DNA from: an uncultured Heliobacteriaceae bacterium
Lineage (GTDB): Bacteria > Acidobacteriota > Blastocatellia > RBC074
DNA: 64,000 bases
Reading direction: 5' to 3'
NCBI GenBank assembly: GCA_964631865.1
Contig: CAZWAK010000007.1
Coordinates: forward strand, 1,934 to 65,933
Below are positions 22,443 through 60,425 of the stretch, piece by piece (the first letter of the stretch is position 1; every line of letters starts with the position of its first letter). The notes under the pieces were generated by a model. That model worked only from the letters and a program-made list of their open reading frames with translations, had not been told where the DNA came from and ran no database searches. Position numbers and translations under genes: made by a program.

Positions 22443-22541
22443 CACATTCAAAGAGCGTTTCTATTGTCAGGGAAACGCGGACGGTTTAGAGTCTACGGTT
22501 CGTAAAGATGTGTGTCAAGCACCTGATTTTTCGAGGATTTC

Positions 22542-30739: not shown

Positions 30740-32554
30740 TTACTTTGCTTTGATGCGAAGCGCGATGTCGTCCTTGTAATTTGGCGCGTTGAATTGTCGT
30801 GTGCCGCCGTTATGCTGAAAGCTTTCGTTGCGCATCCCTGCGCCTGTCACCGGGTCAATCCATTCCGCCGTGAAAGTTCCGGCGGGCAATTCAATCTGCA
30901 AATTCGTCGGCGCATTCGGATCGCGCGGCACATTCAACGGGCCTATCGTGCCCCAACTGAAATTCACTTCGGCATCATTGCGCGCCAGTTGCAAATCCGA
31001 GAGCCACGCATCCTTGAAATACTCGGCCTTCAATCCCGCTGTGCCAAACGCGCGGCTCGGAATCACTTCTTTCGGCTGGCTCGCGCTTGACCACAGCAGC
31101 TTCGTCACGCCTTGCCCGCCGTTGTAAAAATATTCGAGCTTGATGTCGTAGCGTTTGCCTGCTTCGAGTTTGATTTTGTCGGTGTCTTCCGTCTCGCCGT
31201 GATCTGTCCAGTTGTTGATGATGCGCTCGCCGTTGATCCACAAACGCACACCGTCATTCGACAAAGTATGAAATGAATATTCTTCTGAAAACTTCGGTTC
31301 GATTTGTCCCGTCCAACGCGCCGAGAATGCGCCGAATACCATCGTGCGCAAATAGATTGCATAAGCTTTCTTCGGCTCGACCAACGCGCGCGCGGTCACG
31401 CCCGCAGGCACGCCGCCTTTGAGGATCGCGTTGTCGGGCTTCATCTTGATGAAGTTGAAGCCGTTGATGAAATCGCGCAGGTAGCGCAGTTGCTGGCGAA
31501 ACGTCGGATTCCCGCTGCCCGGTTGTGTGTCGGGATATTGATATGTGCCGTCTTCGTAGCCGTGTGTAAACGAGTAATCGAGGTTGTTGTACAGCCCGCC
31601 GCCCGCGATGATGAAGTCCCAGCCTTCCATGCGATAGGGCGTTTCTTTCGACCCGGCAAAGCCGGTTTCGTTGTCGCCGATCACTTTGTTCAGCGCGTAA
31701 TTCATCGCAACGGTGTCGGGCGGATAGGCATAGTGAAAGTTGAAGATCGAAACCGCCGGGTGCGGATTCACGACCTTTTGCTTGCCGTTGTTGATGTTTT
31801 GCGAGATCAGATGTTTATGCTTGAAGTTCTTTTCGGTCTCGACAATCACGTCCGCAATGTGGCGTTGCCATTCGTCCGTCACGCCGCCTGCGTACGGCTC
31901 GTTGCAGATTTCGTAGTAGACGTTATCGAAGTCTTTCAGCTCCGCGACGATCTTGCGCACGTACGCATCCTGCGCGGCGGTGACGTCGGCGTGCTTGAGC
32001 GTTTCGGCTTCGTCCCATTGGCAATTGCCGACGTTGTTGATGTTGTTTTTGAAATAGAACGGATGCGTGAACCAAGACCTATCGCTGTAATAACTGCTGA
32101 AGAGATTCGCTTCGATGATGATGCCGCGTTTGGCGGCTTGCGCGACGAAATCTTTCAGGCGCGCGAAATATTTTTCATCCCACTTCGTCAAATCGAATTT
32201 GTTGCCGCCATCGAAATAGCCCGGCACGTTGCTGCGCGCCCAGGGCGTGATGAACTTCTCCTGCTTTGGCGCAAGCACGTTGTTGGCGATGCCGAACGCG
32301 CCGGGTTGTTCTCGATAGGCAAGGAACGTGCGCGTCAGATTGAGCTTATCTTTGGCGAGCGTGTCGAGATATTTGACGTAATCAAAGTCCAGATTCACGA
32401 CCGCGCCGTAATGTTCGCCTGACGTAATCAACACGGTCGGTTGGCCGCGAAATAAAAAGTAGTGCGGATTGTCAGGATGCAGCGCAAGCGGTTTGGATTG
32501 GGCAAACGACGCGACATAAACGAAGAGCAACGCAAACACAGGGCTTCTTTTCAT
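30740..32554 (-). CDS. Secreted glycoside hydrolase (GH5-like TIM barrel with an NEP motif) with a C-terminal PA14 domain
   Basis: Signal peptide MKRSPVFALLFVYVASFAQS, ...YYEICNEPYAGG..., and a PA14-like ...GVRLWINGERIINNWTDHG...KRYDIKLEYF. Start trimmed from the ORF-track 32806. Confidence 0.6.
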   Translation of the reverse strand: MKRSPVFALLFVYVASFAQSKPLALHPDNPHYFLFRGQPTVLITSGEHYGAVVNLDFDYVKYLDTLAKDKLNLTRTFLAYREQPGAFGIANNVLAPKQEKFITPWARSNVPGYFDGGNKFDLTKWDEKYFARLKDFVAQAAKRGIIIEANLFSSYYSDRSWFTHPFYFKNNINNVGNCQWDEAETLKHADVTAAQDAYVRKIVAELKDFDNVYYEICNEPYAGGVTDEWQRHIADVIVETEKNFKHKHLISQNINNGKQKVVNPHPAVSIFNFHYAYPPDTVAMNYALNKVIGDNETGFAGSKETPYRMEGWDFIIAGGGLYNNLDYSFTHGYEDGTYQYPDTQPGSGNPTFRQQLRYLRDFINGFNFIKMKPDNAILKGGVPAGVTARALVEPKKAYAIYLRTMVFGAFSARWTGQIEPKFSEEYSFHTLSNDGVRLWINGERIINNWTDHGETEDTDKIKLEAGKRYDIKLEYFYNGGQGVTKLLWSSASQPKEVIPSRAFGTAGLKAEYFKDAWLSDLQLARNDAEVNFSWGTIGPLNVPRDPNAPTNLQIELPAGTFTAEWIDPVTGAGMRNESFQHNGGTRQFNAPNYKDDIALRIKAK

Positions 32555-32656
32555 AATCCTCGTAGTGGTGATTGATTTTTTCTGTCCGTGATTATGCCAG
32601 CAGTTGGCCAGGTCGAAAAGGGGAACGATTCTCCTTCTGTTGATATCCCTGAGTGC

Positions 32657-32750
32657 GCGCAGCGTTTGGAGTGCTGCGGCTTGACGTAGCTTTTTATCAC
32701 TCGAATTACCAAAGCGACGTCGAGACCGTCGCACTCCAAACGCTTCGCGC
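32657..32750. repeat. About 95-nt structured (nested inverted-repeat) element, copy A, 75 bp downstream of the TBDR stop
   Basis: Shares identical blocks agtgctgcggcttgacgtagcttt and aaagcgacgtcgagaccgtcgcactccaaacgcttcgcg with 43123-43219. Confidence 0.8.
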
Positions 32751-32826
32751 CACCCCCAATAAAAATGAGCCAGTGTATTGCCGCGAACGACAATGCACTG
32801 GCTCAAATAACAAAGGAGGATTTTCT

Positions 32827-35800
32827 TTAGAACACAACCTTCGCCCGCAACTGAATCATGCGCCCGCTGTAGTTCCCAATGTTGTAATTATTGAAGAACG
32901 TGTTGCCCGCCGTTGCGAACGCTGCCGTCAATGCGCCAACGCCTGCGACGGTGCGCGGTTGTTGATTGAAGATGTCAAAGAATTCCGCGCCGATGCGGAA
33001 GTTTTGCCCTTTCTCGCCGAACACGAACGCTTTCGTCAAATTCAAATCCGTGCGATTGAAGCCGAACGTGCGGAAGGTGTTGCGACCCGCTGTCGAACGC
33101 GCGCCAATGCCTGCCACGACGTATTGCGCGTTCGGATTGTTGACGACATAACCAACCGTCGCGTTGTTGCCCATCGCTACGGTTTGCCCGGCGGCATTGA
33201 TCGCCGTGACGCCGCTCGAAATGCCTGCGATGCCGTTCGGATTGAAGATCGTGCGGTCGCCTGCATTGTCGCGGTTGATGTTGCTGTCTACGCCGGACAG
33301 TGGCGTGATCGGTTGTCCCGATTGCGCCTGGAAGATGCCGTGAACTTGCCAGCCCGCAAACGTCATCCGCAGCCATTTGTTATCGAGGTTTTGGAAGAAC
33401 GGCATGTCGTACGTGAACGACGAAGCCACGCGATGCGGAATGTCCATCGCCGAACGCGCCCGATCTGCGCGCAGGTTGAAGAAATCCTGTGGGCGACGCG
33501 GATTGATCGCGCTGCTGTTCAATTCAACGGTCGAATTGTCAATCGTTGTGCTCCACGTGTAGGCCAGATTGAAGGCCAGTCCGCGATGGAATTGGCGTGT
33601 CAAACTCACCGAACCCGCGTTGTACTGCGACGAGCCAACGAATTGATACGACGTGAGATTTGTCGAGAAGCCGTTCGCTGCGAGCGGTCGCGCATTGACG
33701 CCCGGCACAGCACGCACATCGCCCAATGTTTGCAAGCCCGCAAGTTGCGTCACATCCGGCGTGCTGAAGAACGTCGGCAACACGAGCGCGTTGTCGAAGA
33801 CGGCAGGCGCATTCAAGCGCAATTGCACGGGCAAGTGGCTGCCGCGCGTGCCGAGGTAGCGAACTTCCAAGACCGTGTTCGGCATGATCTCGCGTTGATA
33901 CGCAACCGACCACGACATCGAACGCGGCGAGACTTGATCGGGAATGAACGCATTCGTCGCCGCGCGCGCTGCGTTCGCGTCGGTCAACGGAATCAGTTGA
34001 TTCGGGATGCCGCCGCTTTGCAAAAATGCACGCGCCGGATCGAGTCCGAACGCTGCGTTCGCGGAAGCTGCCGTCAACGTTTGCTGAAACTGCGGCGGCA
34101 ACGAAGTCAGCACGAGATTGTAGAAATTCTCGTAATAACTCACGCCAAAATTCGCGCGAATTGCGCTCTTGCCTTGTTCGCCGAACAACCAATTGCCGAC
34201 GCGATTTTTCATCGTCGGCGACCACGCAAAACCAACGCGCGGCGCAAAGTTGTTTTTGTCCGTGCGCGGTTTGTTGAATTCGAGCACGCCCGGCGCGCTC
34301 GCAATGGAATTCAACGCCTGCATCGCCAAATCGCGCGGCAACGTTGAGTATTCGTAACGCACGCCGAGGTTCAGCGTGAAGTTTGGCTTCAGCTTCCAGT
34401 CGTCCTGCGCGAACGCGGCGGTGCGATATTGATTGCCCGTGAAGCCGTCGCTGCCTGTGCTGCGGAACGAACCGTTGACGAGCGGCGATTGATCGCGCAG
34501 CAAGTTGTCAAAGCTCGCGTAATCGTAATAACCGCGCGCGAATTGCAGGAAGCGTTGCGTGAAAATTTGCCGCCGCATTTCGCCGCCGAATTTGAACGTG
34601 TGCGCGCCGCGCATCCAGCTCAGCGCGTCGGCAATTTGATAGCTGCTGTTCACGGGAGCGCCTTGCGGCAAGACCTGATTCGGGCCGAGATTCAAATTCA
34701 ATTCGGTCACAACCAGATTCGGAAAGTTGCTGACGTTCGCGTCTTTGATCGGATAGTTTTCCGTGATGCCGCGATACGCAATGCGCGCGTCGTTGACAAT
34801 CGTCGGGCTGAACACGCGCACCCACGTCGCCGAAAACAAACGGCTGTCGTAGGCTTGCAAATTATTGAACTTCGCATTGCCGCCGCCCGGTTGTTCCGCG
34901 CGCCGCCGCTCGAAACTGAAGCGATAGCGAAATTGATTTTTGTCGTTCGGCAAATGGTCAATGTTGGTTTGGAACAGATGCTCGCGCGCGCCTGCCGGAA
35001 CCGTCAACGCAACCGTGCCGAAGGGAACGCCCGCGTTGCCAAGCACTGTGCGTTGCGCGGTTTCGGTCGGCGCGAGCGCGAGGTTGTTGCGCAACGTCTC
35101 CACGACAAACGGGCTGACGCCAGCAAAGCCTGCGATTTGTTGCAAGCCCGCTTCCGTCGGCGCGAGGTACGTCGAAGTCACGGCGTTTTGTTGCGTGCGT
35201 TCGTATTGATACGCGCCGAAGTAAAACAATTTGTTGGCGACAATCGGCCCGCCAATCGTGCCGCCGAAGCGGCGATTGCGAAAGTACGGGCGTGTGCCGT
35301 TGCTCCAACGCGCGTTCAGGCTTTCGGTTTGCGCATAGCCGAACAGCGAGCCGTGCAGCGCATTCGTGCCGGACATCGTGACGGTGTTGAATTGACCGCC
35401 CGCTGCGGAACCGAATTCCGCATTGAAGTTGTTCGTCAAAACCGTGAATTCCTGAATCGCATCGAGGATCAATTTGGTCGAAGGCCCGGTCACGCTCGGA
35501 TCGTCGTTGTTGACGCCGTCAATGTTGAAGCTGTTGCCGCGCGGGCGCACGCCGCCGATGGTTCCGCCCGTGCCAACGACGCCCGTCGAAGTCGCTACGA
35601 CATTCGGCGCGAGCAACGCCAGCGAGTAATAGTTGCCGATGATTGGCAGCTCCAGCGATTGCCGCGAATTCCAACTGCCGCTCAGTTGTGACGTGTCGGT
35701 TTGGAGCGTTCCGCCTGCGGTGGCGGTGACGTTGACCTGATCGGAAACCTCGCCCGTTTGCATGGCAACATCCACGACGGATTCCTGATTGAGCGCAATG

Positions 35801-36090
35801 ACGATTTCGCTCGCCGCAGCTTTGAAGCCGTCCGCCGCAATCTTCACGTTATATGTGCCAACGGGAACGTTGGGAAAGTTATAAGCACCTGCCGCCGTCG
35901 TCTGCATCGTCACGGTTTGCCCGGTCGCCTCGTTTTTCAACGTGACCGTAGCGTTGGGAATCACCGCGCCGGAAGCGTCGGTGACGGTTCCGCTGGCGCG
36001 TCCGCCCGTCGCCTGCGCAAACGCACAGACGGCTGTCAGCAAGAGGATCAAAAGGCTGTGAAAGACAAATTTAGGATTCATAAAACTCAC
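32827..36090 (-). CDS. TonB-dependent receptor with an N-terminal carboxypeptidase regulatory-like domain
   Basis: Signal peptide, ...GTVTDASGAVIPNATVTLKNEATGQTV..., about 1080 aa with beta-barrel repeats and a C-terminal ...RAKVVF. Start may be at 36081. Confidence 0.8.
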   Translation of the reverse strand: MSFMNPKFVFHSLLILLLTAVCAFAQATGGRASGTVTDASGAVIPNATVTLKNEATGQTVTMQTTAAGAYNFPNVPVGTYNVKIAADGFKAAASEIVIALNQESVVDVAMQTGEVSDQVNVTATAGGTLQTDTSQLSGSWNSRQSLELPIIGNYYSLALLAPNVVATSTGVVGTGGTIGGVRPRGNSFNIDGVNNDDPSVTGPSTKLILDAIQEFTVLTNNFNAEFGSAAGGQFNTVTMSGTNALHGSLFGYAQTESLNARWSNGTRPYFRNRRFGGTIGGPIVANKLFYFGAYQYERTQQNAVTSTYLAPTEAGLQQIAGFAGVSPFVVETLRNNLALAPTETAQRTVLGNAGVPFGTVALTVPAGAREHLFQTNIDHLPNDKNQFRYRFSFERRRAEQPGGGNAKFNNLQAYDSRLFSATWVRVFSPTIVNDARIAYRGITENYPIKDANVSNFPNLVVTELNLNLGPNQVLPQGAPVNSSYQIADALSWMRGAHTFKFGGEMRRQIFTQRFLQFARGYYDYASFDNLLRDQSPLVNGSFRSTGSDGFTGNQYRTAAFAQDDWKLKPNFTLNLGVRYEYSTLPRDLAMQALNSIASAPGVLEFNKPRTDKNNFAPRVGFAWSPTMKNRVGNWLFGEQGKSAIRANFGVSYYENFYNLVLTSLPPQFQQTLTAASANAAFGLDPARAFLQSGGIPNQLIPLTDANAARAATNAFIPDQVSPRSMSWSVAYQREIMPNTVLEVRYLGTRGSHLPVQLRLNAPAVFDNALVLPTFFSTPDVTQLAGLQTLGDVRAVPGVNARPLAANGFSTNLTSYQFVGSSQYNAGSVSLTRQFHRGLAFNLAYTWSTTIDNSTVELNSSAINPRRPQDFFNLRADRARSAMDIPHRVASSFTYDMPFFQNLDNKWLRMTFAGWQVHGIFQAQSGQPITPLSGVDSNINRDNAGDRTIFNPNGIAGISSGVTAINAAGQTVAMGNNATVGYVVNNPNAQYVVAGIGARSTAGRNTFRTFGFNRTDLNLTKAFVFGEKGQNFRIGAEFFDIFNQQPRTVAGVGALTAAFATAGNTFFNNYNIGNYSGRMIQLRAKVVF

Positions 36091-36290
36091 TGGTTATGAA
36101 GCGCAAGTGCCGCTAAAACCTGGCTTCGTAGTTGTGATGGGTGTTCGATGATTGAGGATTGGCGATAAACTCTTGTGGGCTGTCGGAAACGTTATGAGGC
36201 CAACGCGCGAGGGGCTTGCTGCGAGGAAGGTATTAGACCAGCCGGGTTCGCTGGATACAAGTTACAAAGTAATGACAATTTAATGACAGC

Positions 36291-36403
36291 GTTGGGTGCG
36301 GGGCGCATCCTGCGGGCTGAGGCTCACGGGGTGAATCCCTTATTACGATGAAAGCCTCAGCCTTCGCAAGCCTCAGCCCGCAGGATGCGCCCCGCACCCA
36401 ACA
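36291..36403. terminator. 34-bp perfect inverted repeat with a 45-nt loop, ending at the stop codon of the GMC oxidoreductase gene
   Basis: gttgggtgcggggcgcatcctgcgggctgaggct ... agcctcagcccgcaggatgcgccccgcacccaac. Confidence 0.6.
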
Positions 36404-38092
36404 TTACACCTCGCCGCGTTTGGCTTGCTCAATCAAGTATTCACTCGCGCGCATTGCCAGTGCCAGAATCGTCAGCGTCGGATTCACGCAGCCGCTCGAC
36501 ACAAAGCAACTGCCATCCACGACGAACAAATTTTTCACATCGTGCGCTTGATTGAATTGATTGAGCACCGAAGTCTTTTTGTCATTGCCCATGCGCGCGG
36601 TTCCGACTTCGTGAATGCTGTGACCGGGCGGGAACATGGCGAGGTTTTCGCTGACCAATTCGACGCCCGCCGCCTCAAACATTTCGTGCGCGCATTCAAT
36701 CGCATCGTTCGTCAGGTTTTGTTCGTTGTCGCCGTAAGCAATGTCAATCTTGAGCGACGGAATGCCCCACGCATCTTTCAGGTTCGGATCAATCGCAACG
36801 TGATTTTCCTTGCGCGCGAGGACTTCGCCAAACGCACTCATCCGCACAAACGCGGGATGCAACGCGCGGACTTCGGTTTTGAAATCTTTGCCAAAACCCG
36901 CCGTCGTTTTTGCGTGGCTGGGGAAAATCCCAGCGCCGCTCCCCGCTTGATAGCCAAAGCGGCGAATGTATTTTTGCTGCTTCGACGCTTTGTCCAAATT
37001 GCGAAACGGCGGGATGTATGTGCCTTGCGGACGCCCGTCTTCATTGACGATTTCGCGTCCTTTGAAATCTTTGATTAGCCCCGTGAAGCTCACGCCCCAC
37101 GTGTGATCGTGCAAATATTTGCCGAGCACGCCGCTCGAATTCGCCAGGCCGTTTGGATACTCGCGCGAAGTCGAATTGAGCAAAATGCGCGTGGATTCGA
37201 GCGTGGACGCGCCGAGAATCACGACTTTGCCGAGCGCTTCGTAATCGCGCTTCGAGGTGCGATCAATGAAGCGCACGCCTTTTGCTTTGCCGGTTTTGGA
37301 ATCCAACAAAACTTCGCGCACCACCGCATCCGAACGCAGCGTCAGCTTGCCCGTGTCGTTCGCCGGAGCAAGCAAGCCCGTCGGCGAATTGAACATTGCG
37401 CCGACATCGCAGCCGCGCCCGCACGTGCCGCAGTAATGACAGGCCGCGCGATATTTGTTGTGCGCGAGTTTTTCGCTGATGACGCCTGCGCGCGTCGGAA
37501 TCAAATGACGTCCGGTTTTCTCCACGCCACGCTGCAAAATCTTTTCGCCACACAGCATCGGCTGTGGCTTTTGAAAGATGCCGTCAGGCAATTGCGGCAA
37601 GCCTTCGCGTGTGCCCATAATCCCGATCAAACGATCTACGTGGTCGTAGTACGGCTGCAAATCATCGTATGAAATCGGCCAGTCATCGCCGTAACCATCG
37701 TGCGAAGCGGCTTTGAAATCGAACTCGCTCAAACGCAACGCCACGCGCCCCCACACGAGCGTGCGACCGCCGACAGCCCGCGCGCGTACCCAATCGAACG
37801 GCTTATCTTTCGGCGTCGAATACGGGTTTTCATCGAGCCGTGCGTAGATGTGTGTCGTGTAGCCGTCGGCGAACCCGTATTTGTAATTGTGCGCATCGCG
37901 CGGCGAGATGCGACCGCGATATTTTTCTTCGTACGGCCAAGTGTGCGTTTTGAAGTCGTTGTATAAATCCAGCTTCGGCCCGGCTTCGAGAACTAACACA
38001 TCCATTCCCGCTTTGGTGAGCATGTACGCCGCCATCCCGCCTGCCGCGCCCGAACCAACAATGACGGCATCATAAATTTTTTGGGTGGTCAT
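36404..38092 (-). CDS. GMC family oxidoreductase
   Basis: VIVGSGAAGG FAD-binding motif and GMC C-terminal signatures. 562 aa. Confidence 0.85.
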   Translation of the reverse strand: MTTQKIYDAVIVGSGAAGGMAAYMLTKAGMDVLVLEAGPKLDLYNDFKTHTWPYEEKYRGRISPRDAHNYKYGFADGYTTHIYARLDENPYSTPKDKPFDWVRARAVGGRTLVWGRVALRLSEFDFKAASHDGYGDDWPISYDDLQPYYDHVDRLIGIMGTREGLPQLPDGIFQKPQPMLCGEKILQRGVEKTGRHLIPTRAGVISEKLAHNKYRAACHYCGTCGRGCDVGAMFNSPTGLLAPANDTGKLTLRSDAVVREVLLDSKTGKAKGVRFIDRTSKRDYEALGKVVILGASTLESTRILLNSTSREYPNGLANSSGVLGKYLHDHTWGVSFTGLIKDFKGREIVNEDGRPQGTYIPPFRNLDKASKQQKYIRRFGYQAGSGAGIFPSHAKTTAGFGKDFKTEVRALHPAFVRMSAFGEVLARKENHVAIDPNLKDAWGIPSLKIDIAYGDNEQNLTNDAIECAHEMFEAAGVELVSENLAMFPPGHSIHEVGTARMGNDKKTSVLNQFNQAHDVKNLFVVDGSCFVSSGCVNPTLTILALAMRASEYLIEQAKRGEV

Positions 38093-38103
38093 GAGTTTCT
38101 CCT

Positions 38104-38193
38104 AAAGAGGCGTCAAGAGTTCAAGCTTCAGCTTGGTTTTTCAGTCACACAAGCGCAAACCCAAGCTAAAGCTTGAACTCTTGACGCCTCTTT
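38104..38193. terminator. About 90-nt near-perfect palindrome (25-bp outer stem plus inner stem) between the 2OG-oxygenase stop and the GMC start. Member of a palindromic element family.
   Basis: aaagaggcgtcaagagttcaagctt ... aagcttgaactcttgacgcctcttt followed by tttt. Confidence 0.65.
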
Positions 38194-38808
38194 TTAGCGT
38201 AGCAAATTGCTTTCGAGCGAACGTCGCTTGAACCAGCCTGTGAGACTAAAACGTTCGCGCGTCGCAGGCAAGACTTCGTGCGCAATCGCGTCGCTGCGAA
38301 AGAGTGCAAACGTTCCGGCGTGCGGGTAAACGTCAATGTGCTGCGCGCCTTCGTACAACCGCAATGCGCCGCCATCGGCTTCGTTCCAGTTGGCATTCAG
38401 ATACAACGAACATGAAAGAATGCGTTCATCCGCTGTGTTGAAGCGGTCGAAATGCTTTTGATAAAACGCGCCGGGCGGATAGACGGCATAATGCGCTTCC
38501 AAATCCTGCACGCCGACAAACAATTGCGCGTTGAGTTCCTGCCGCAGCGTTTCCATCGCGGTGAAATATTCAGCTTGCGGCGTAGTCAAATTCGCTTCGT
38601 CGAGCCACAAAATATGATCGCGGCGGATGTCGGCGCGAATACTGAAGTCTGCGCCGCGCCCGACGCCAGCGGATTTGAATGCGGCAGTTATCCACAACGT
38701 TTGCGCTTCGTCGGCCAAAGCAGCAATCGTGTGTGGCGCGAGCAAGTCGGTTGTAACCGCCCAGCCGTGCTCGGCGAGATGGTTAATGAGGAACGAGGTA
38801 TTTTCCAT
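38194..38808 (-). CDS. 2OG-Fe(II) oxygenase (prolyl-4-hydroxylase-like)
   Basis: ...HFDRFN...D...ALRLYEG...HEVLP..R.S.TGWF... gives the HxD...H facial triad and an RxS motif. Confidence 0.8.
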   Translation of the reverse strand: MENTSFLINHLAEHGWAVTTDLLAPHTIAALADEAQTLWITAAFKSAGVGRGADFSIRADIRRDHILWLDEANLTTPQAEYFTAMETLRQELNAQLFVGVQDLEAHYAVYPPGAFYQKHFDRFNTADERILSCSLYLNANWNEADGGALRLYEGAQHIDVYPHAGTFALFRSDAIAHEVLPATRERFSLTGWFKRRSLESNLLR

Positions 38809-39130
38809 GATGATTTGAAGATCAACTATACCTTATTCAATTTCGCCTGTCCGCCCGTTCCCAGCGTTTTGCAACGCACGAGGCTACAGCGGAAAGTTTC
38901 GCACGGTGTGCGACCGTTGTGCGCGAAAATCCGCGAATTTGTGGGGCAAGGCTCGGTTTTTCGCGCGGCATACGTTTTGCTCTCTTTGCCAAGGGGGGAA
39001 CCTGAAAAGAGCCAGTAGGGCTAGAAATCGGGGAGTTAGTGCGGTGGGTGCAGCCGCTGCACTAGAGGTTCCCCCCGTTCGATCAAGAAAACTTGGCTAT
39101 CTTGGGGCTGGATTTTTCCTTTTTCAATGC

Positions 39131-40028
39131 GAGGGATGAAATGACAGAATCAATGAAAATTTTGATGGCGTACGATGGCTCTGATTGCGCGCAGGCCGCG
39201 TTGGATGATTTACGCTCGGCGGGCTTGCCCACCAAAGCGAATGTCAAAGTGGTGGCGATTTTGGAAACGTGGTTGCCGCCGCCGTCGGGCTGGGCACTGA
39301 TGGAAGGCACGAGCAGAGCCAGTGAAGAATTGGATCGGTTGGCGCTGGCACAAGGTGCGGCGGTGTCCTTGCGCTCGATGTTTCCAGGCTGGGAGCTGAC
39401 GGCGCAGGAAGAAATCGGTTCTCCGGCCAGCGTCTTGCTGAAGATCGCAGATGATTGGAAGCCGGATTTGCTGGTCGTCGGTTCGCACAGTCGTTCCGCC
39501 GCCGGGCGCTTTTTTCTCGGCAGCGTTTCGCAAAAACTGGTTCACGAAGCGCATTGCTCAGTGCGTGTGGCGCGTGGGCGCGTGCAAGAGCCGGACACGC
39601 CGCTGCGCCTCCTCATCGGGGTAGACGGTTCCGCCGGTTCGCAAGCGGCAGTGAATGTCGTCGCACAGCGTAATTGGCCGACGAACACCGAAGTAAAGCT
39701 GGTGAACGCCACGTGGGCCGCGCCGCATTTGTTCGCTGAACCAGCCGCCTCAGCCGTGACGAAATGGTTAGCTGAAGAACACGCGCGCATCGAAACGAGC
39801 CTGCAAGAAGCACAGGAAAAACTACAAGCCGCAGGTTTGCAGGTGACGCGGCTGACCCGACAAGAAGACCCGAAAACATTGCTCTGCGAAGAGGCGGAAC
39901 GCTGGGGAGCAGATTGTATTTTTGTGGGAGCCAAAGGCGTAGGCCGCTGGGAACGGCTGTTGATTGGCAGTGTGTCTTCCGCGGTGGCGGCGCGTGCGCA
40001 TTGCTCGGTCGAGATTGTGCGTCCGTAA
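39131..40028 (+). CDS. Universal stress protein (tandem UspA domains)
   Basis: Two UspA-like halves, each with ...LLVVGSHSRS.../...FVGAKGVGR... ATP-binding-like loops. RBS gaggga lies upstream of the ATG at 39131. Confidence 0.8.
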
Positions 40029-40084
40029 AGCGCGGGCAGATGTGGGGCAGGCTGAAAACCTGCCCCATATTTTTTCGGTGCGCT

Positions 40085-40507
40085 TTATTGCCAATGTTCA
40101 CTGACGCCCGTGATGCGGTTGATGCGCAGACGAAAGACAATGGTTTCCGCTTGTTCCTGCTTGATCTGAGACTCTACGGGCGTGAGGTGCGGCAACCGCT
40201 GGAACATCGCGCCGAGGATTTGTTCGCGCTCGTCTGCCTCGGTGATCTCTTCGTACTCGCCAAACACAATGACGCTCTTCCAGTTGTAATCATCCACGAC
40301 CTCATCTACTTGCAGGCAAATCTGCGGTTGTGCCCGCATAGCACGAATTTTCAAACCGGGCAGCGAGTGCATATACAGGTCTTCGCCCGTGTACAAATAG
40401 TTGATCGGCAAAACATACGGCTCCTGGTTGACGTTGCAACCCAAACGGCCTAACTGATGAGCTTGCAGTAAAGCCCGTGCATCTTCTTTTCCAAGCGGTT
40501 CAATCAT
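40085..40507 (-). CDS. Pyridoxamine 5'-phosphate oxidase family (NimA-like FMN-binding split-barrel) protein
   Basis: ...LGRLGCNVNQEPYVLPINYLYTGEDLYMHS... Confidence 0.75.
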   Translation of the reverse strand: MIEPLGKEDARALLQAHQLGRLGCNVNQEPYVLPINYLYTGEDLYMHSLPGLKIRAMRAQPQICLQVDEVVDDYNWKSVIVFGEYEEITEADEREQILGAMFQRLPHLTPVESQIKQEQAETIVFRLRINRITGVSEHWQ

Positions 40508-40766
40508 AAGTGAAAATTCCTCTCCGGTTGGGATTCAGGCAAGCAGCGTACCGCTTTCGGGCCGGTACAGCCACTCTAAATCACGCTTTCTCTCGTCGCG
40601 CTCATAATTTTTTATTTTGCCAAAAAAGCGATTGTGCTATTATCCCGCGCCGTAAGGAAGGTAGTAAATTCAGTCCTTAACCGCTGATTCTCAATCAGCG
40701 GTTCGAGAGCAGGTTTTTGCCCGAAAGATTCCTCACCTGCTTGGTAATCCGGTCCCCGAACTCCTT

Positions 40767-41000
40767 TCAGTGTTTCATAGCCCTGTGTCTTTCGCCTGGA
40801 TTGGCAGGTTTTGTTCTTTTATAAATTGCTGGCACTTGATCATTCGTTGACCACACATACACATTATATTGGCTATCTTTTTTCCAAGTTAAGGAAACGG
40901 CTGACTCGAGAGTAGCATCTGACCGCCAGTCGCAATCTTCGGTAAAGTTCTTCACGACTTTGTTTTTCTGGTTCACTTGTTTGGTGTACGGCTTATTCAA
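40767..41000 (-). CDS. Small hypothetical protein in a locally lower-GC segment
   Basis: ORF only. Confidence 0.3.
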   Translation of the reverse strand: MNKPYTKQVNQKNKVVKNFTEDCDWRSDATLESAVSLTWKKDSQYNVYVWSTNDQVPAIYKRTKPANPGERHRAMKH

Positions 41001-41031
41001 CGATCAACTCAATTGATAGGGAGACAACGCT

Positions 41032-41298
41032 ATGAGTGCAGCAATTCAGTTAGTCAATCCACAGGCCATCTATCCTGAAAGAACCGTCGCAGAGGTCGAG
41101 TCCATCACGGTCGGCTCGAACGAACAAAAGCTGCGGCGCGCGCTCGAATACATTCACGAACTGCAAGCGGAAAACCGCCTGCTCCACGCCGAATTGGCGC
41201 GCGCCGAGCGGGCCTTGACGCATCGCGACACGCTGCTGCGCAATGCGATTTTGCGCGAGCAGGAGTTACGGGCGGAGTTGGTCAAAGGAGTTTTTTAA
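41032..41298 (+). CDS. Hypothetical coiled-coil protein
   Basis: ORF with heptad-like ...LRRALEYIHELQAENRLLHAELARAERAL... Confidence 0.4.
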   Translation: MSAAIQLVNPQAIYPERTVAEVESITVGSNEQKLRRALEYIHELQAENRLLHAELARAERALTHRDTLLRNAILREQELRAELVKGVF

Positions 41299-41509
41299 GA
41301 TTTCCGGGAAGTCCTCATAAGCCAGCGATGCTCCTCAACCCAGCCCCCTGCAATCGCTGCTCTTCAGGCCATTCTTCACGAAACTCTTGACCGGCAATCA
41401 GAAGCTTGCGGCTGACAAGCCGAAGCGAAGTGTATAAATGCGACGAGGCTCACCGATGAATGTGCTTCATCAATGAGCCTGCGACGCGCCATCGCTTTGT
41501 GCTGCGGCT

Positions 41510-42193
41510 TCAGCGGACGGGTTTGACTTCCCATTGGGAAAGCGCAGATACCGCCATGCCCATCATCACCCAACGTTTGGGCGTGGTGAGAAAATGGATG
41601 CCCACGCGCCAGAACCCTTCGGCTTGATGGGCGTATTTGACCACGCCTTCCACTTGAAATTGTCCTTCCAGTCCGTTGAGCCGGAGTAAATCGCCGACGC
41701 CGACCTGCCGGTTAAGCGAAACGCAAACGCCGCGCCGACTGACGTTCTCGGTGTAAACTTCGTCCGCAAATCCTTGTCCGAACCGATCCTTGCCCTCGAC
41801 GGTCAGCTTCACGCCCAGCCGCACGCGGGTGTCGCGCAAACGGACGCCGGGCATGTCGTCCACCTCTCTTTCGACACTGCTTTTGTCAATGATCTCCTGC
41901 ACTTTGGCCAGATCGCTTTCCGCAATTTCCAGAAACCGCACGCCCACGCCCACTTCGCTCTGCACAAAACGCACCTGCGCTGTGGCTTGAATAAACGTGC
42001 GATCCGGTAAATTGAGTCGGAGATGCACCAACGCACCGGCTTGCAAGGGTAATTTGGTTGCAATGAAAACCCCTCCGATACTGAGGTTCGTCGCTTTGAC
42101 CCGGTACGTTTCTCCCTGGCAAAACAAAGTTACGGGGTATCCTGTGTCCACGCGGCGATAGCGCCGTTTATCTGTGTAGTTTTCTTTGGTCAT
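41510..42193 (-). CDS. Tandem PilZ domain protein (c-di-GMP receptor-like)
   Basis: RRYRRV...NLSIGGVF and RLRDTRVR...ENVSRRGVCV match the RxxxR / DxSxxG PilZ motifs twice. Confidence 0.75.
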   Translation of the reverse strand: MTKENYTDKRRYRRVDTGYPVTLFCQGETYRVKATNLSIGGVFIATKLPLQAGALVHLRLNLPDRTFIQATAQVRFVQSEVGVGVRFLEIAESDLAKVQEIIDKSSVEREVDDMPGVRLRDTRVRLGVKLTVEGKDRFGQGFADEVYTENVSRRGVCVSLNRQVGVGDLLRLNGLEGQFQVEGVVKYAHQAEGFWRVGIHFLTTPKRWVMMGMAVSALSQWEVKPVR

Positions 42194-42721
42194 GATCGGA
42201 CTCCACTTTTTCTCGTAGTAATCTCAGGGGCACGGGGGCTGCCATCTGTCAGCTTCTTTGTACGCCGCTTTTGTTTTCCCGTTGTTTTAATCTGATGATG
42301 AAGCTGTAACGCCCTGGAAATCTCGCGCTCTCAGAAAGGCTGAGGCCGGGGCCGGAAGTGGTTCGATCAAAGCGTTGATCTGGTGATTTTTCAGAGACTT
42401 AAACCCTCCTTCACTCGGCTCTAACACGGCTTGCCTAGACTTGGCGCGTTCGTTGGAAGCGGAACATCGTCCGCTTCCTTGTGCTGGAACAAGCCCGGTT
42501 GTCTTTGCGAGCTTCGGTCATCCGTTCCAGCGATTCCTGGCTTGACGGGGCGGAAAACGCAAGGGGAGGCGTGTGACGGAGAAGGCGAACGAGAAGTCAT
42601 CCCAGGAAAGGTCATCGCGCCAGCTTGGGGGAGTTGAGCGGGACACGCACTACGGGGGCAAGCCGCATGAACCGGGCACCAGCATCATCACAATTTTGCT
42701 GCTTTTGCTGATACAGGTTTG

Positions 42722-42768
42722 GAGGCGCAGGCAAAGTTAGGGGGAAATTGTCTGCGCCTTTTTTTTTG
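42722..42768 (+). terminator. Rho-independent terminator (plus strand)
   Basis: ggcgcag gcaaagttagggggaaattgt ctgcgcc followed by T9. Confidence 0.6.
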
Positions 42769-42789
42769 CTCGCAACACGGAAGGAGTTT

Positions 42790-42885
42790 ATGCGTCGAGA
42801 TGTTTTAGCCTTTGGCTCTGTCAGCCTGCTGGTCTTTCTCTTATTGGTCGCTACGATCTGGTATTTGCTCCCGCCAGTTCGTTGA
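42790..42885 (+). CDS. Putative 31-aa hydrophobic peptide
   Basis: Strong SD ggaaggag 7 nt upstream of the ATG. MRRDVLAFGSVSLLVFLLLVATIWYLLPPVR. Speculative. Confidence 0.3.
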   Translation: MRRDVLAFGSVSLLVFLLLVATIWYLLPPVR

Positions 42886-43122
42886 ATCGCACCAAATCAT
42901 CGCGCACCGTTGTCGCGTTGCAAGTCGTGAGAACCAGCTTTGCACCGCGCTCCAACAACGCCTCAAACAACAGCACCATTTTGCTTTCGAGATGCACGCT
43001 CCAGCCACACGCCCGTCAAATCGGGCATTGCCGCAATCGCACGTTGCGTGCGCGGCATGTGCAGGCGCATCCAAGCGAGGTCAGTGGCGCTGGCATGGAC
43101 AAAGATGGGGAAGAGAATGAAT

Positions 43123-43219
43123 TGCGATGCCACGCGAAGCGTTTCTCAGTGCTGCGGCTTGACGTAGCTTTGGCATCGCTACGAAGACAAAAGCGACGTC
43201 GAGACCGTCGCACTCCAAA
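43123..43219. repeat. About 95-nt structured element, copy B, 17 bp downstream of the second TBDR stop
   Basis: See copy A at 32657-32750. Same orientation relative to the upstream TBDR gene. Confidence 0.8.
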
Positions 43220-43235
43220 CGCTTCGCGTGAACGA

Positions 43236-46200
43236 TCAAAACGTGAACTTCACCGCCAACTGCAATTGACGCGGGTCGCCCACGCCTTGCCGCAGGAAGC
43301 CGTCAAAATTGAACAGCCCCGGCGTAATCAGCGGATTGATGAGGTTCCGGTTATTGAAGGTATTGAACATCTCGATGGTCGGAATCAGTGCGAAGCGTTC
43401 GCCGCCGAAACGGAACGGACGCGACACGCGCCAATCGAACGAGAAGAATTCGTTTTCCTTGCGCGTCGTGTTGCGGTTCGTCGCCGTCCGCGTGCCCGGC
43501 GTGATCGGTTGCGCGGAACGAGCCTGAATGCGCGTGTTCACCTGCAAACCGCCCCAGATTTCGCCGTAGAGCAGGAAGTTGAATTTGTGGCGAATGTCGC
43601 GGTCGGAGAGCGCGTAATCGAGGCGCAGATTGCGGATGTCGAACGAACGATCTGAGAACGGGTCGCGTTCGTTGGAGTCGTCGTCCAGGTCTTTCGACCA
43701 CACGTAATTGCCGTCCAATTGAAAACCTCTGCTCAGCCGTTTGCGCACACCGATTGTGAAGCCACGATAGAGCGATTTGCCGACTGAACTTGTAATCGCC
43801 GTTTCATCCAGATACGGCGCGAAGATGCCTAGGCGTCCGTAGTTCAAAAAGCGCGTCAGCCGCACGCCTTTGGAATGCGTGAAGTCGAGATAGAGCGCCG
43901 TGTCCGTAGCAATCTGTTGCTCAAACTGCACGTTCGTCGTGTAAATACGCGGGTTCGTGTAATCGCGGCTGAACGCGCGCACGCCTGAAAAACACGGGAA
44001 CGGATTGGTGCCGAGCGAGCCGCTACAGGTTTGTGCCGTCGGCGTCAGCACGCCCGGCCACGTCGGCGCAGGCAAGCCGAACCCGATCAACTCTGTGTTG
44101 CGGAAGATGGTTTGTTGCTGCACGCCGTTCGTCGTGATCGAACCGACTTGCGACAACATATTTTGCCGCGCGTTGTAAATGCCCCACGAAGCGCGCAGCA
44201 CCGATTTGCTGTTGTTTGCGAAATCCCACGCGAAGCCGATGCGCGGTTGGAACATCTTCCATTGATCGGGCAACGTGCCATCGGACGGGAAACGCGGATC
44301 GCGCAGGAACAAACCGTACGCCGTTTTGGCAGGCTCAACCGTTGGGTTCGGCAAGACCTGTGCTTCCCAACGCAAACCGAACTGCCACGTGAAGCCGGGA
44401 CGCCATTGCCATTTGTCCTGCACGAACGCCGCGAACTCATCGTTGTTGATGTCAGACGCACCGGCTGCATCAGTAGCGGGGCCGCTGGGGCCTGCGCCTT
44501 GCAAATACAACAGCAACGGGCCGCCTGTCGCCGTCGTTCCAGTTGGACAAGCGGCTGTCGCGGCGACATACGTTCCGTTCGAGCAGCCTTTGATGTTTGG
44601 CCCGAATCCTGCGCCCAGGCTCGCGGGCGAGGCATAACGTAAAAATCCGGTCACGCTGTCAAAGATGTAGCGCGCGGTGAAGAAGCCGCGAAAGACCTGT
44701 GTGTTGTTGCTGCGAATGTATTCGCCGCCGAATTTCAGGTTGTGTCCGCCCGCGATGATGGAGAAGCTGTCGCGCACCTGAAACCGCTGGAACAATTCAT
44801 CAATGCCGGGTTGTATAAAGAACGGGCTGCCGAAACGAAACGTCGTGGCAAAGCCCATCGCCGTGTCCGCCGGGACGTTCGATTGCACGGCGCTGCGCGG
44901 ACGATCTTCGCGCGAAAACGTCGCGTGAAATTCATTGAGCTTCGTGCTGGACAACGATGAGTACAGGTTCCAATTCAGCACATTGATTTTGCCCGGCCCT
45001 TCCGTGCCGTTCGCCGAATTGCCATACGTCGCCACATCGAAAGTTTCGTTGTCTTTGCGCGAGCGGCTGAAGTTGTATGAAAACGCAAAATCATTGGCAT
45101 CGCTGAATTTCCAATCCAGTTTGCCCAAAAACGCCGACGTATTGACCGGTTTTTTCAGCGGCAAGCCTTCGTCCTGTTGGCGCGTGGTTTTGAAAAAGTT
45201 GATGAGCGCGAGGCGTTGGCAATCGGCGCTGCTGTTGATGAGGGCTTCGTTGGCCTGAATCGTCGGAGCTTGAAGGCTGCACGGCGTGCCAATCGGCACA
45301 CTCAAATTCGCGCGCGTGAAGTTGCCAGTGATTTGCTCGAACGCGCCGAAGAAAAACGCTTTGTCCTGCACCAGCGGGCCGCCCAGCGTGCCGCCGAATT
45401 GCTCACGGTGAAAATCTTTGAGCGAATTGCCATCGGACGTTTTGGCCGTCATGTTTTCGTGGCGTTGGAAATGAAAGATCGTGCCGCGAAAATTATTCGT
45501 GCCGGATTTGGTGATGACGTTCACGACACCGCCTGCGGTGCGTCCGAATTCAGCCGATGCGCCCGTCGCCACGACCTGAAATTCCTTGATCGCGTCGAGC
45601 GTGATGTCAATGGCCGCGCGCTGTCCGCCGACCTGTTCGCCGAAGAAGCCGTTGTTGTAATCGCCGCCGTCCAAACTGATGTTATTGAAGACGCCGCGTT
45701 GCCCGGCAAAATTGACGACATCGCCGTCCGGCCCTTGCGTGACGCTGACGCCGGGCGTCAGCGTGAGCATATCCAGAAACTTGCGCCCCAGCACTGGCGT
45801 GTTGGAGACCGCGACTTCATTGAGCGTCGAACTGGATTCGGTTTTCACGGTGTCAATCGTCGGCGCACTGGTGATCGTGATGGTTTCTTCCACTGACGAA
45901 ACTTTCATTTGCAACGACAAACTGATCGTTTGTCCGACCGTTAACGAAAGGCTTTCCTGTCGCAGTTTGGCGTAGCCTTGCTTCGCTACTTGCAACTCGT
46001 AACGACCCGGTTGCAATTGCAAAAAAGCAAAGCGCCCTTCCGCATCTGAAACCAAAACTCTCGTCAAATTATTGTCCAGATTTTTGGCTTCAATATTCGC
46101 ACCGGGCACGACTGCGCCGGCCTGATCGGTGACGGTTCCCTGAATAACGCCGGTCGTGCTTTGGGTTTGAGCGAAAGCGGGGAGAGAACATAAAAGCAAT

Positions 46201-46237
46201 AATAAGAGGCTGATGCCTCGTCGTAGATGACAAATCA
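43236..46237 (-). CDS. TonB-dependent receptor with an N-terminal carboxypeptidase regulatory-like domain
   Basis: Signal peptide MICHLRRGISLLLLLLCSLPAFAQ, ...GTVTDQAGAVVPGANIEAKN..., about 1000 aa, terminal ...LAVKFTF. Confidence 0.8.
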
Positions 46238-46503
46238 TTGGCGTGCTCCTTCTCGAAAAAAATAACCTGTGTCTCAAGTTTCTTGTGACCGCATTTGATG
46301 GCTGGCGATTGTATGAAGCCATCCCGCATTCGGCAAGGGCTGGGAAAGATTTTTGCGCAAATCAAATCCATGTTAGCGCGAGGTTAAGCGGAGCCAATAT
46401 TAACAGGGGTTTGCTGCATCATTTTGACAATGTGAGCGAGGATGGCCACAATGCAGGCGCGTCGTTTTTCTTCGTCAAAATGTTCCGAAACTGAGGAGGT
46501 CTT

Positions 46504-48528: not shown

Positions 48529-48547
48529 AGCTGCGCCCGCGAACACA

Positions 48548-48624
48548 GGCGTCAAGAGTACGCGCTTCAGCGTGATTTTGCTTTCGATGACAAACCCTCA
48601 CGCTGAAGCGTGTACTCATGACAC
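48548..48624. terminator. 28-bp-stem hairpin between the convergent sialidase-like and murQ genes. Second member of the palindromic element family.
   Basis: ggcgtcaagagtacgcgcttcagcgtga ... tcacgctgaagcgtgtactcatgacacc, then tctttt. Confidence 0.65.
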
Positions 48625-48630
48625 CTCTTT

Positions 48631-50780: not shown

Positions 50781-50854
50781 AGTTGTCAGTTGTCAGTGGC
50801 TGGTTGTCAGCTACTGTGTTTTTGCTGGCAACTGACAACCGACAACTGACAACT
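50781..50854. promoter_or_regulatory. Heptamer-built palindrome (TTGTCAG x3, T-rich centre, CTGACAA x3) in the divergent promoter region between the kinase gene and the LysR gene
   Basis: agttgtcagttgtcagtggctggttgtcag ctactgtgtttttgctggcaa ctgacaaccgacaactgacaact. Confidence 0.6.
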
Positions 50855-59456: not shown

Positions 59457-59566
59457 TGATTCAGCCCCTCCGGCAAGAAGCCCGCTAATAACGTGAACAA
59501 TATGAATTTTATTTTGCAGAAGCCAAAACCATCCGTAACCTGCGATAGGCGAGCTATCTCAGATAG

Positions 59567-60424: not shown

Positions 60425-60425
60425 C

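Follow-up and report, generated by a model that had tools for sequence, protein, structure and literature searches.

The two elements and their neighborhood

The window, a 64-kb stretch of Blastocatellia DNA, contains two TonB-dependent receptor genes (TBDR1 and TBDR2), and a nested inverted repeat of ~95 nt lies downstream of each. The features of the two loci are as follows.

30740-32557, minus strand: GH5/PA14 gene (Pfam), downstream of copy 1
32590-32600, minus strand: −10-like box CTGGCATAATC upstream of the GH5/PA14 gene, conserved in the window, L024, and L022
32655-32750: copy 1 doublet, with outer stem extension GCGCAGCG / CGCTTCGCGC, left unit, 17-nt spacer, and right unit
32664-32696, plus strand: copy 1 left REP-like unit, TGC/GTA stem type, GTTTGGAGT-GCTGCG-GCTTGA-CGTAGC-TTTTTA
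32708-32741, minus strand: copy 1 right REP-like unit, GAC/GTC stem type with a 7-nt loop, inverted relative to the left unit
32757-32805, minus strand: canonical intrinsic terminator of TBDR1 (17-bp stem, UUCG loop, then CAUUUUUAUU), between the stop codon and copy 1
32827-36090, minus strand: TBDR1, outer-membrane receptor with Pfam CarboxypepD_reg and OMP_b-brl_4; ORF of 1,087 aa, orthologues of 1,084 aa
42790-42885, plus strand: small conserved ORF MRRDVLAFGSVSLLVFLLLVATIWYLLPPVR from the ORF list, convergent with TBDR2
43131-43230: copy 2 doublet, with outer stem CACGCGAAGCGTTT / AAACGCTTCGCGTG, left unit, 18-nt spacer, and right unit
43142-43174, plus strand: copy 2 left unit, with the degenerate head CTCAGT versus TGGAGT
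43187-43220, minus strand: copy 2 right unit, a hairpin followed by TTTTGTCTTC
43236-46238, minus strand: TBDR2, with the architecture of TBDR1; 1,000 aa if its start matches that of the orthologues, which makes 46238 the likely true start of an ORF reaching 46322

The preliminary description had reported two sequence blocks shared by the elements, and both are exact: the 24-nt block AGTGCTGCGGCTTGACGTAGCTTT lies at 32670-32693 and 43148-43171, and the 39-nt block AAAGCGACGTCGAGACCGTCGCACTCCAAACGCTTCGCG at 32711-32749 and 43190-43228, with no match in 100 shuffles when up to 3 mismatches were permitted. It was also right that the central loops and outer left arms differ between the copies; the spacers are wholly different and the arms identical. 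Some positions had to be corrected: copy 2 ends at ~43230 rather than at 43219, and the gaps from the stop codons, given earlier as 17 to 75 nt, are 76 nt for copy 1 (TBDR1) and 7 nt for copy 2 (TBDR2). A weak echo placed near 41470 came down to a 12-nt match at 41499-41510 (blastn E 0.3) that the covariance model did not see, and it is thus attributed to chance.

The nested stems proposed earlier are borne out by folding. The predicted structure of both copies is a long, imperfectly paired hairpin with an energy of −56 to −62 kcal/mol (z −5.9 to −9.1), equally stable on both strands; copy 1 (inverted repeat I25) reaches −61 to −62 kcal/mol on the plus as well as the minus strand. The statement that the element does not end in a T-run holds for the whole, as no U-run follows the outer stem of either copy, and needs refinement for the parts, since each arm hairpin is directly followed by TTT(T/G). 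A lax terminator scan was passed only by arm hairpins with TTTTTAT or TTTTGTCTT; terminator-like matches were found in the copy 1 left unit on the plus strand and in the copy 2 right unit on the minus strand (43211-43193). The latter is the unit that the TBDR2 transcript meets first.

TBDR1 and TBDR2 are only 25% identical, so the doublets were not left behind by a gene duplication. For the TBDR1 terminator (−35 kcal/mol, z −6.4), conservation extends to L022, L023, and L024 and includes compensatory changes at 3 pairs, and copy 1 lies between this terminator and the −10-like box of the GH5/PA14 gene. Copy 2 is located between convergent genes, given the orientation of the small plus-strand ORF, whose DNA is conserved downstream of the TBDR2 orthologues of L019 and L021, and it is the sole terminator-like structure after the TBDR2 stop codon.

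The presence of the element varies at orthologous sites. Among the TBDR1 orthologues (94%, 89%, and 84% identity), the closest locus, L022 (94% at the amino acid level), lacks the copy 1 element, and L024 carries a different insert at that site. At the TBDR2 orthologues, unrelated hairpins were found in L021 and L020, and a degenerate relative right after the stop codon in L019. A DDE_Tnp_1 gene was also observed near the L019 orthologue.

A hairpin unit with compensatory stem changes

Each arm carries a unit of 26 to 33 nt, GGAGT-GC NNN G-GCTYGA-C NNN GC-TTTGG, composed of an unpaired invariant head (GGAGT), a 6-bp G+C-rich stem with three variable middle pairs, a conserved loop (GCTYGA, or GTCTCGA in one subtype), and a tail (TTTGG). 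The Blastocatellia subfamily has an extra 9-bp outer extension, CGCGAAGCG. In an alignment of 31 units, 27 of them distinct, 100% of the cells are paired, and both sides have changed in 3 of the 6 pairs (22 such cells, a value as high being reached in 0 of 500 shuffles); all slid registers were worse. The alignment includes the left and right units of copy 1, which score 50.9 and 52.2 bits with covariance model R1 and are both paired at 6 of 6 positions, as well as the left unit of copy 2 (43.1 bits); the right unit of copy 2 scores 51.1 bits. Six stem variants were found, all complementary (TGC/GTA, TAC/GTA, GAC/GTC, GGT/ACC, GGC/GCC, and GCC/GGC), the sixth coming from a scan with unconstrained NNN. 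The unit hairpin is maintained by compensatory substitutions.

In all 10 doublets, pairing within the arms is 6/6, with 2 to 4 mismatches between the arms at the same columns. Two units of different stem subtypes face each other across the spacer, so that the entire element is also able to form one hairpin of ~95 nt. Conservation of the arms is 100%; the spacers, from 17 nt upward in length, diverge, those of copy 2 (w2), L002, and L004 looking related. In our reading, each element is probably a doublet in which two REP-type units stand tail to tail, with the architecture of a BIME or REPIN.

Copies in other genomes and competing explanations

Further copies were found, five in 3 Blastocatellia metagenome-assembled genomes (MAGs) and five in metagenome contigs. 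Exact matches number 1 to 2 per fragmented MAG, compared with 2 doublets in the 64 kb of the window, and 92 kb of closely related contigs contain none. The genes flanking the copies elsewhere are diverse (CHAT/TPR, LptE-like, Uma2, sulfatase, PIN/HicB, DPPIV, PDZ, EngA, ferredoxin, CAP, and HAD): copies were found behind the PDZ, EngA, ferredoxin, and sulfatase genes and next to toxin-antitoxin and CHAT genes. In this small sample most copies lie 0 to 110 nt past a stop codon, and for several the distance is at most 13 nt (0 to 13 nt in L007, L008, and L012; 63 nt in L011); the L002 doublet is located between convergent genes. The exception is L004, whose doublet precedes a gene start by 57 nt and is separated from the stop codon before it by 354 nt. 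Phage contigs contain the unit singly, in both orientations and inside tight gaps between co-directional genes. No target-site duplication was found at the flanks of any copy.

The preliminary description had favored a 3′-untranslated region (3′UTR)-derived small RNA (sRNA) or a cis-acting stability element dedicated to TBDR transcripts. It is true that each window copy follows one of the two TBDR genes, the only ones among ~57 genes (nominal chance, ~6 × 10^-4), in the same orientation relative to these genes, both of which are on the minus strand, and the degenerate relative in L019 again follows a TBDR2 orthologue. An sRNA of this kind would be located within its parent transcript, as copy 2 could be; copy 1, however, lies beyond a conserved intrinsic terminator and its U-run. 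Neither is the element conserved with the gene, being absent from the closest TBDR1 locus and replaced by unrelated hairpins at TBDR2 orthologues, and no TBDR was found among the identifiable flanking genes of nine other copies. The fold shows no strand preference, and in Rfam searches only the tmRNA of the window reached the gathering threshold, the surroundings of the elements giving just subthreshold matches to generic hairpins (miRNA). A dedicated TBDR role is thus already largely refuted and has hardly any probability left, the association with TBDR genes seen in the window being incidental or a local effect at most. The same earlier account had named a random scatter of copies with respect to gene type and orientation (a generic REP) as an outcome that would refute its idea, and the copies do behave as a generic REP; the REP-like element that it listed as an alternative is the candidate favored by the evidence. 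As the repeat sits behind many unrelated genes in related bacteria, it is an ordinary intergenic repeat rather than a TBDR-specific signal.

A family of (bidirectional) terminators or mRNA 3′-end protectors, kept by host selection and not by a transposase, is unlikely, although several observations fit it. An incoming transcript would meet a G+C-rich hairpin followed by UUU(U/G), and the doublet (~60 kcal/mol) would block 3′ exonucleases; besides the positions after stop codons and the scan matches of the arm hairpins, copy 2 provides the only terminator-like structure after TBDR2, some strong hairpin, differing in sequence, is always present at orthologous sites, and the spacers drift between fully conserved arms. 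A hairpin right behind a stop codon is also what an intrinsic terminator shows. However, the U-run is merely 3 to 4 nt, short of the 5 or more U that follow the G+C-rich hairpin of an intrinsic terminator, and the single-unit hairpin is weak, the stretch fold being no better than that of shuffles (z +1.05). A complete canonical terminator already precedes copy 1, and neither the L004 doublet nor the units in phage contigs are placed as this explanation would have them. Function alone also leaves unexplained why identical sequences occur at unrelated loci of different species. The invariant head, loop, and tail, combined with covarying stem bases, could instead mark the recognition element of a DNA-binding protein (a regulator, a nucleoid protein, or gyrase), as E. 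coli REPs are targets of gyrase and IHF (cited in PMC3733652). We consider such a site very improbable: a duplex half-site needs no compensation, so the stem covariation speaks for a folded single strand, the copies are not positioned relative to promoters, and their flanking genes share no function. Slightly less credible still are classical MITEs, i.e., insertion sequences that have lost internal parts, keep terminal inverted repeats, and are mobilized by a DDE transposase. The ~95-nt size, the long terminal inverted repeats, the variable center, and the DDE_Tnp_1 gene of L019 would fit, but target-site duplications are absent, units occur singly, and selection acts on an intra-arm hairpin that a terminal inverted repeat does not require.

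A REP-type repeat family in Blastocatellia, that is, a dispersed palindromic repeat of a known kind, remains the likely explanation. By analogy with other REPs, its units may be recognized as single-strand DNA hairpins and spread or homogenized by a RAYT/TnpA-REP-type Y1 HUH transposase. The lack of target-site duplications is expected under Y1-type, not DDE-type, mobilization. A Y1_Tnp scan of the ~50 larger ORFs of the 64-kb window (~60 called in all) and of a few ORFs beside the phage-contig units detected no RAYT or Y1 transposase gene, either in the window or beside any copy. The spacers of the two window copies differ completely, so transposition of whole doublets is only a possibility. 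Copies may persist just past stop codons because insertions are tolerated there, and once transcribed, the hairpin could form a 3′-end barrier leading to mRNA stabilization or weak termination; the doublet probably acts as a 3′-end hairpin incidentally.

Comparison with known hairpin and repeat families

Enterobacterial 3′UTR-derived sRNAs, which regulate envelope proteins, share the conservation of their parent gene, whose terminator marks their end. The elements described here resemble them in lying downstream of an outer-membrane protein gene and differ in the lack of conservation with that gene and in the position of copy 1 beyond the terminator. Compared with intrinsic terminators, the elements are similar in the TTT(T/G) after each unit and differ in lacking a U-run of 5 to 8 nt and in recurring with the same sequence at unrelated loci; the real terminator of TBDR1 is a separate conserved structure.

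Within the phylum, class 3 TnpA-Y1-associated hairpins are known from Acidobacteria, and also from Planctomycetes, with ~600 copies in Solibacter usitatus (PMC6006769). These are high-copy atypical hairpins thought to be REP-like; compared by description only, they have a 5′ CnGA foot that is missing here.

The closest parallels are with REP/BIME/REPIN sequences of E. coli, Pseudomonas, and Stenotrophomonas, in particular the GTAG superfamily (Di Nocera et al. 2013, PMC3733652), which are likewise short, G+C-rich imperfect palindromes with a conserved unpaired head, a tail of 3 nt or more, and subfamilies defined by stem bases. REPs are 20 to 40 nt long with stems of 5 to 13 bp, a range that includes all 27 distinct units, and their alternative complementary stems have a counterpart in the six variants. 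Published REPs also form heterodimers and tail-to-tail dimers with variable spacers (PMC3733652); the ten doublets are similarly inverted, mostly heterodimeric, and foldable into one hairpin of ~100 nt. REPs lie within ~20 bp of 3′ ends where the neighboring ORFs are unidirectional or convergent (PMC3733652), and the Blastocatellia copies are also extragenic and near 3′ ends, in a small sample and apart from L004, without target duplication. Differences concern the low copy number as seen, compared with tens to hundreds, or thousands, of copies per genome for classical REPs, the lack of a linked RAYT gene with units on its flanks (REPtron), and the occurrence of units in phage contigs. Acidobacteriota (class Blastocatellia) are not among the phyla listed for tagged REPs (PMC3733652). 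The invariant head GGAG(T) departs from the strict consensus GT[AG]G, while head positions 2 and 3 tolerate degeneracy in published families (PMC3733652).

REPs flanking RAYT genes provide the nearest sequence match (Quentin et al. 2018, Table S1, PMC6006769). In Chloroflexus aurantiacus (subclass 2.2) the head GGAGTG precedes CGGCAGC-CAT-GCTGCCG, and in Calothrix (2.7) GTAGT precedes GCGAGCG-TCT-CGCTCGC. Although the loops differ in sequence and length (GCTYGA here versus CAT or TCT), the TTTGG tail occurs only here, and RAYT association is shown only there, the Blastocatellia unit, in which GGAGT precedes GCGACG-GTCTCGA-CGTCGC, has a near-identical head and a similar start of the stem.

Two doublets behind the receptor genes

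Two copies of the doublet, which consists of two inverted REP-like units (the left and right arms) and a spacer, lie beside the TonB-dependent receptor genes TBDR1 and TBDR2, and the first is accompanied by a terminator:

32655-32750, doublet copy 1 (full element)
32757-32805, minus strand, canonical intrinsic terminator of TBDR1 with a 17-bp stem and a UUCG loop, then CAUUUUUAUU
43131-43230, doublet copy 2 (full element)

As stated in the preliminary description, the copies share two exact blocks, one of 24 nt (32670-32693 and 43148-43171) and one of 39 nt (32711-32749 and 43190-43228). No further match of either block was found elsewhere in the window at up to 3 mismatches, and none occurred in 100 shuffles. 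The pair and its inverted arms were also recovered by a window-wide repeat scan (repeats D12 and I25). The nested inverted-repeat fold was likewise confirmed, both copies forming a long imperfect hairpin (-56 to -62 kcal/mol, z -5.9 to -9.1) with no strand preference in folding energy, since both strands fold equally well. The proposed partial "echo" near 41470 was reduced to a 12-nt match at 41499-41510 (E 0.3), which the covariance model of the single unit (R1) did not see and which we treat as a chance match.

Both copies do lie 3' of TBDR genes in the same relative orientation, but the distances past the stops were corrected from 17 to 75 nt to 76 nt for copy 1 and 7 nt for copy 2. The two minus-strand genes encode Acidobacteria-type receptors with CarboxypepD_reg and OMP_b-brl_4 domains, whose proteins are only 25% identical. 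This low identity rules out an origin of the doublets by gene duplication. Because the receptor DNA has long diverged, yet the 24- and 39-nt blocks are perfect, the doublet arrived or was homogenised independently of the TBDR genes.

The repeat unit and its distribution

Each arm is itself a small palindrome, GGAGT-GCTGCG-GCTTGA-CGTAGC-TTT on the left and, on the other strand, GGAGT-GCGACG-GTCTCGA-CGTCGC-TTT on the right. The unit consensus is GGAGT-GC NNN G-GCTYGA-C NNN GC-TTTGG (search pattern GGAGTGCNNNGGCTYGACNNNGCTTT). In an alignment of 31 units (27 distinct), the 6-bp hairpin was paired in 100% of cells, with changes on both sides in 3 of the 6 pairs (22 cells); none of 500 shuffles reached the observed values, and all slid registers were far worse. 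The head GGAGTGC, the loop GGCTYGAC and the tail GCTTT are invariant or nearly so. When viral contigs were scanned with the stem left free, NNN was complementary in every match, which added a sixth variant, GCC/GGC.

While pairing within each arm was 6/6 in 10 of 10 doublets, pairing between arms showed 2 to 4 mismatches at the very columns that pair within the arms. The conserved structure is thus the small arm hairpin, which is under selection, and the long hairpin arises only incidentally, from two non-identical units that face each other in inverted orientation. The arms were shown to be conserved far more strongly than the spacers. Those in the window (17 and 18 nt) are mutually unrelated in sequence; the spacers of copy 2 and of the doublets at two other loci, L002 and L004, look distantly related, and the arms there are identical. 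No target-site duplication is visible at any copy, and a MITE with target duplication was rejected on this ground.

With the right-arm core as the query, a genome scan yielded five true matches in three Blastocatellia MAGs and two chance matches in actinobacteria, and a metagenome scan with the left arm added five more contigs. In the metagenome copies, the left arm is teamed with other right-arm stem types (GCGGTG...CACCGC or GCGGCG...CGCCGC); one contig holds a tandem pair of doublets and another a lone left unit. When viral contigs were scanned, genuine phage contigs encoding a terminase, Mu gp37 and a tail protein proved to carry single units. In seven IMG/VR contigs (L013-L018 and L025; 56-65% G+C), single units (GGAGTGCGGCGGCTTGACGCCGCTTT and variants) occupy very short intergenic gaps, in both orientations with respect to the genes. 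In the window R1 matched the four arms alone, and 92 kb of closely related contigs gave no match. Neither the doublet nor the single unit had a meaningful BLAST match among plasmids and phages, and a protein search with a "ghost ORF" translated from one doublet (LECGGLTPLW...) gave no candidates. Similar units may be common in Planctomycetes, Verrucomicrobia and Acidobacteria, an idea to which this protein search lent no support.

Insertion sites and neighbouring genes

The TBDR1 terminator (-35 kcal/mol, z -6.4) lies between the TBDR1 stop and copy 1. In the TBDR1 orthologous loci, taken via the closest homologues (94%, 89% and 84% identity), it is kept in 3 of 3 cases with three compensatory pairs and a U-run, so that transcription of TBDR1 should stop short of copy 1. 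At the closest locus, L022, the doublet is absent, and the next gene's conserved -10-like box, CTGGCATAAT, stands ~20 nt beyond the terminator. A second orthologous locus, L024, carries at this site an unrelated insert of ~130 nt (4345-4475), rich in GTACCG/CGGTAC motifs and probably another repeat family. Since one locus lacks the element, another has a different insert and the window has the doublet, copy 1 is a lineage-specific insertion between terminator and promoter.

Directly 3' of the TBDR2 stop, the window has the doublet and the orthologues compared (91%, 91% and 84% identity) have other sequences: an unrelated hairpin (L021), two other long hairpins (L020), or a degenerate relative in which 15 nt (GTCAAGCCACCGCAC) match the right-arm type seen in metagenomes (L019). 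Two of these three loci have a small convergent ORF in common further downstream. Two more intergenic sites near TBDR1 (36291-36402 and 38104-38193) hold long hairpins in the window and different ones in the orthologous loci, unlike the TBDR1 upstream region, which is conserved. Hairpin repeats behind stop codons are evidently general in these genomes and turn over quickly.

Several other elements were noted at gene ends and around the receptor genes. The site at 36291-36402 is a perfect inverted repeat with 34-nt arms (GTTGGGTGCGGGGCGCATCCTGCGGGCTGAGGCT ...), 1-2 nt past the stop of a GMC oxidoreductase gene (36404-38092, minus strand), and L022 has unrelated sequence there. A second doublet family (38104-38193 and 48538-48635) combines AAGAGGCGTCAAGAGT with a small hairpin in inverted pairs; its inner hairpins, CAAGC-TTCA-GCTTG versus ACGC-TTCA-GCGT, have covarying stems in the same nested architecture, and it fills the 3'-end gaps of 2OG oxygenase/GMC and of the convergent BNR/SIS genes. 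Long hairpins at 19771-19857 and 50781-50854, also at gene 3' ends, are built from the tandem motifs (TTGGTGG)n and (AGTTGTC)n and their complements. A 31-codon ORF at 42790-42885 on the plus strand (MRRDVLAFGSVSLLVFLLLVATIWYLLPPVR), with an A-run upstream, looks like a single-pass membrane peptide, and its DNA is conserved 3' of the TBDR2 orthologues in L019 and L021. Upstream of TBDR1, a direct repeat at 36257-36288 on the minus strand (TGTCATTA-AAT-TGTCATTA-CTTTGTAACTTGT) is almost exactly conserved in L022 and a further orthologous locus, L023, amid varying sequence, and may bind a regulator or belong to a promoter. Elsewhere, a 55-nt direct repeat (93% identical; 137-191 and 1443-1497) brackets an AAA-ATPase gene (222-1439), after which come DUF433 and HNH genes. 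A glycosyltransferase and methyltransferase block at 58365-63882 has a third-position G+C of 0.37-0.46, versus 0.6-0.7 elsewhere, a difference that suggests a horizontally acquired polysaccharide cluster.

The preliminary description had favored a regulatory RNA or stability element specific to TBDR transcripts. In the window, the 2 copies do stand behind the only 2 TBDR genes among ~57 genes, for which the chance is roughly 6e-4, a coincidence that should not be dismissed. Neither the other copies nor the orthologous loci repeat the association. The doublets in other genomes and metagenomes are flanked by genes for LptE-like, CHAT/TPR, Uma2, sulfatase, PIN/HicB, DPPIV, PDZ, EngA, ferredoxin, CAP-domain and HAD hydrolase proteins, with no TBDR among these identifiable neighbours. 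With copy 1 beyond the TBDR1 terminator and the orthologous loci differing, a TBDR-specific RNA is unsupported. The coincidence could stem from local spread, with 10.5 kb between the copies, from a preference for gene ends that have strong terminators, or from chance.

The alternative that the preliminary description also named, a REP-like element, is supported instead. The nearest upstream stop is 0-13 nt away at L012, L008 and L007 and 63 nt away at L011; the L002 doublet lies between convergent genes, ~90-110 nt from the nearest upstream stop, and that of L004 is 354 nt past the upstream stop, with the next start only 57 nt away. Orientation is not fixed, as the right arm faces the upstream gene in five cases and the left in about three.

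Possible effects and relation to REP systems

Copies have dispersed to unrelated loci, and orthologous sites differ in whether they carry one. As in other REP systems, the units would be recognised in folded, single-stranded form, and a Y1 HUH transposase (RAYT) would copy or homogenise them; copies would survive just past stop codons, where they may do little harm, and those that are transcribed would add a strong 3' hairpin. Any transcript entering the doublet from either side meets the first unit as a hairpin followed by UUU(U/G), so that the doublet could plausibly act as a weak stop in both directions or as a barrier to exonucleases. At TBDR2, copy 2 is the only terminator-like structure. 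Because a single unit is a poor terminator (z +1.05) and copy 1 lies behind a complete one, termination is not the reason for the family's existence. We regard as improbable a broader reading, in which the unit is an uncatalogued structured motif, widely shared among Blastocatellia, other higher-G+C bacteria and their phages, and more than a lineage-specific selfish REP. A conserved factor, either a RAYT class not yet described or an RNA- or DNA-binding protein of the host, would then recognise its invariant head, loop and tail, and tail-to-tail doublets would be modular two-way transcription stops or insulators kept by hosts at gene ends.

The tempting but wrong lead of a receptor-specific regulatory RNA is removed, and a REP-type doublet family is now documented in Blastocatellia (Acidobacteriota). 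Its clean covariation assigns the conserved structure to the small arm hairpin instead of the long one, and different hairpin repeats are exchanged at the same post-stop sites in these genomes. Repeats of this kind fragment assemblies, give rise to spurious small ORFs and can pass for terminators or sRNAs, so R1 is useful for annotation.

No Rfam family matches the doublet; a tmRNA gene (22077-22443, minus strand; RF00023, 142 bits) was the only hit at gathering level in the window, and an E-value search around the doublets and four related loci gave only generic miRNA and snoRNA noise. A full-text literature search with the sequence strings gave only unrelated primer matches. No RAYT or Y1 transposase was found among the ~50 window ORFs scanned or the ORFs adjoining units in phage contigs.

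The evidence supports a new REP-type repeat that shares its features with REP elements and with BIME/REPIN, the inverted doublets of such elements. Tagged REPs have a short G+C-rich palindrome, a conserved unpaired head and a short tail, form sub-families set apart by complementary stem bases, prefer heterodimers, and occur as tail-to-tail dimers with variable spacers and no target duplication, near 3' ends between unidirectional or convergent genes (PMC3733652); the doublet matches all of these traits. The tagged REP head is GTAG, in contrast to GGAG(T) in the window unit; the supplements of that survey hold no consensus matching the unit, and Acidobacteriota are not among the tagged-REP hosts that it lists (PMC3733652). 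In Acidobacteria, REP-like hairpins have been linked to class 3 Y1 proteins (PMC6006769). Discovery of a cognate RAYT for the window unit would add a new phylum to the REPIN-RAYT system. Very close to the window unit, GGAGT|GCGACG-GTCTCGA-CGTCGC, are the RAYT-flanking REPs of Chloroflexus, GGAGTG|CGGCAGC-CAT-GCTGCCG, and Calothrix, GTAGT|GCGAGCG-TCT-CGCTCGC (PMC6006769, Table S1).
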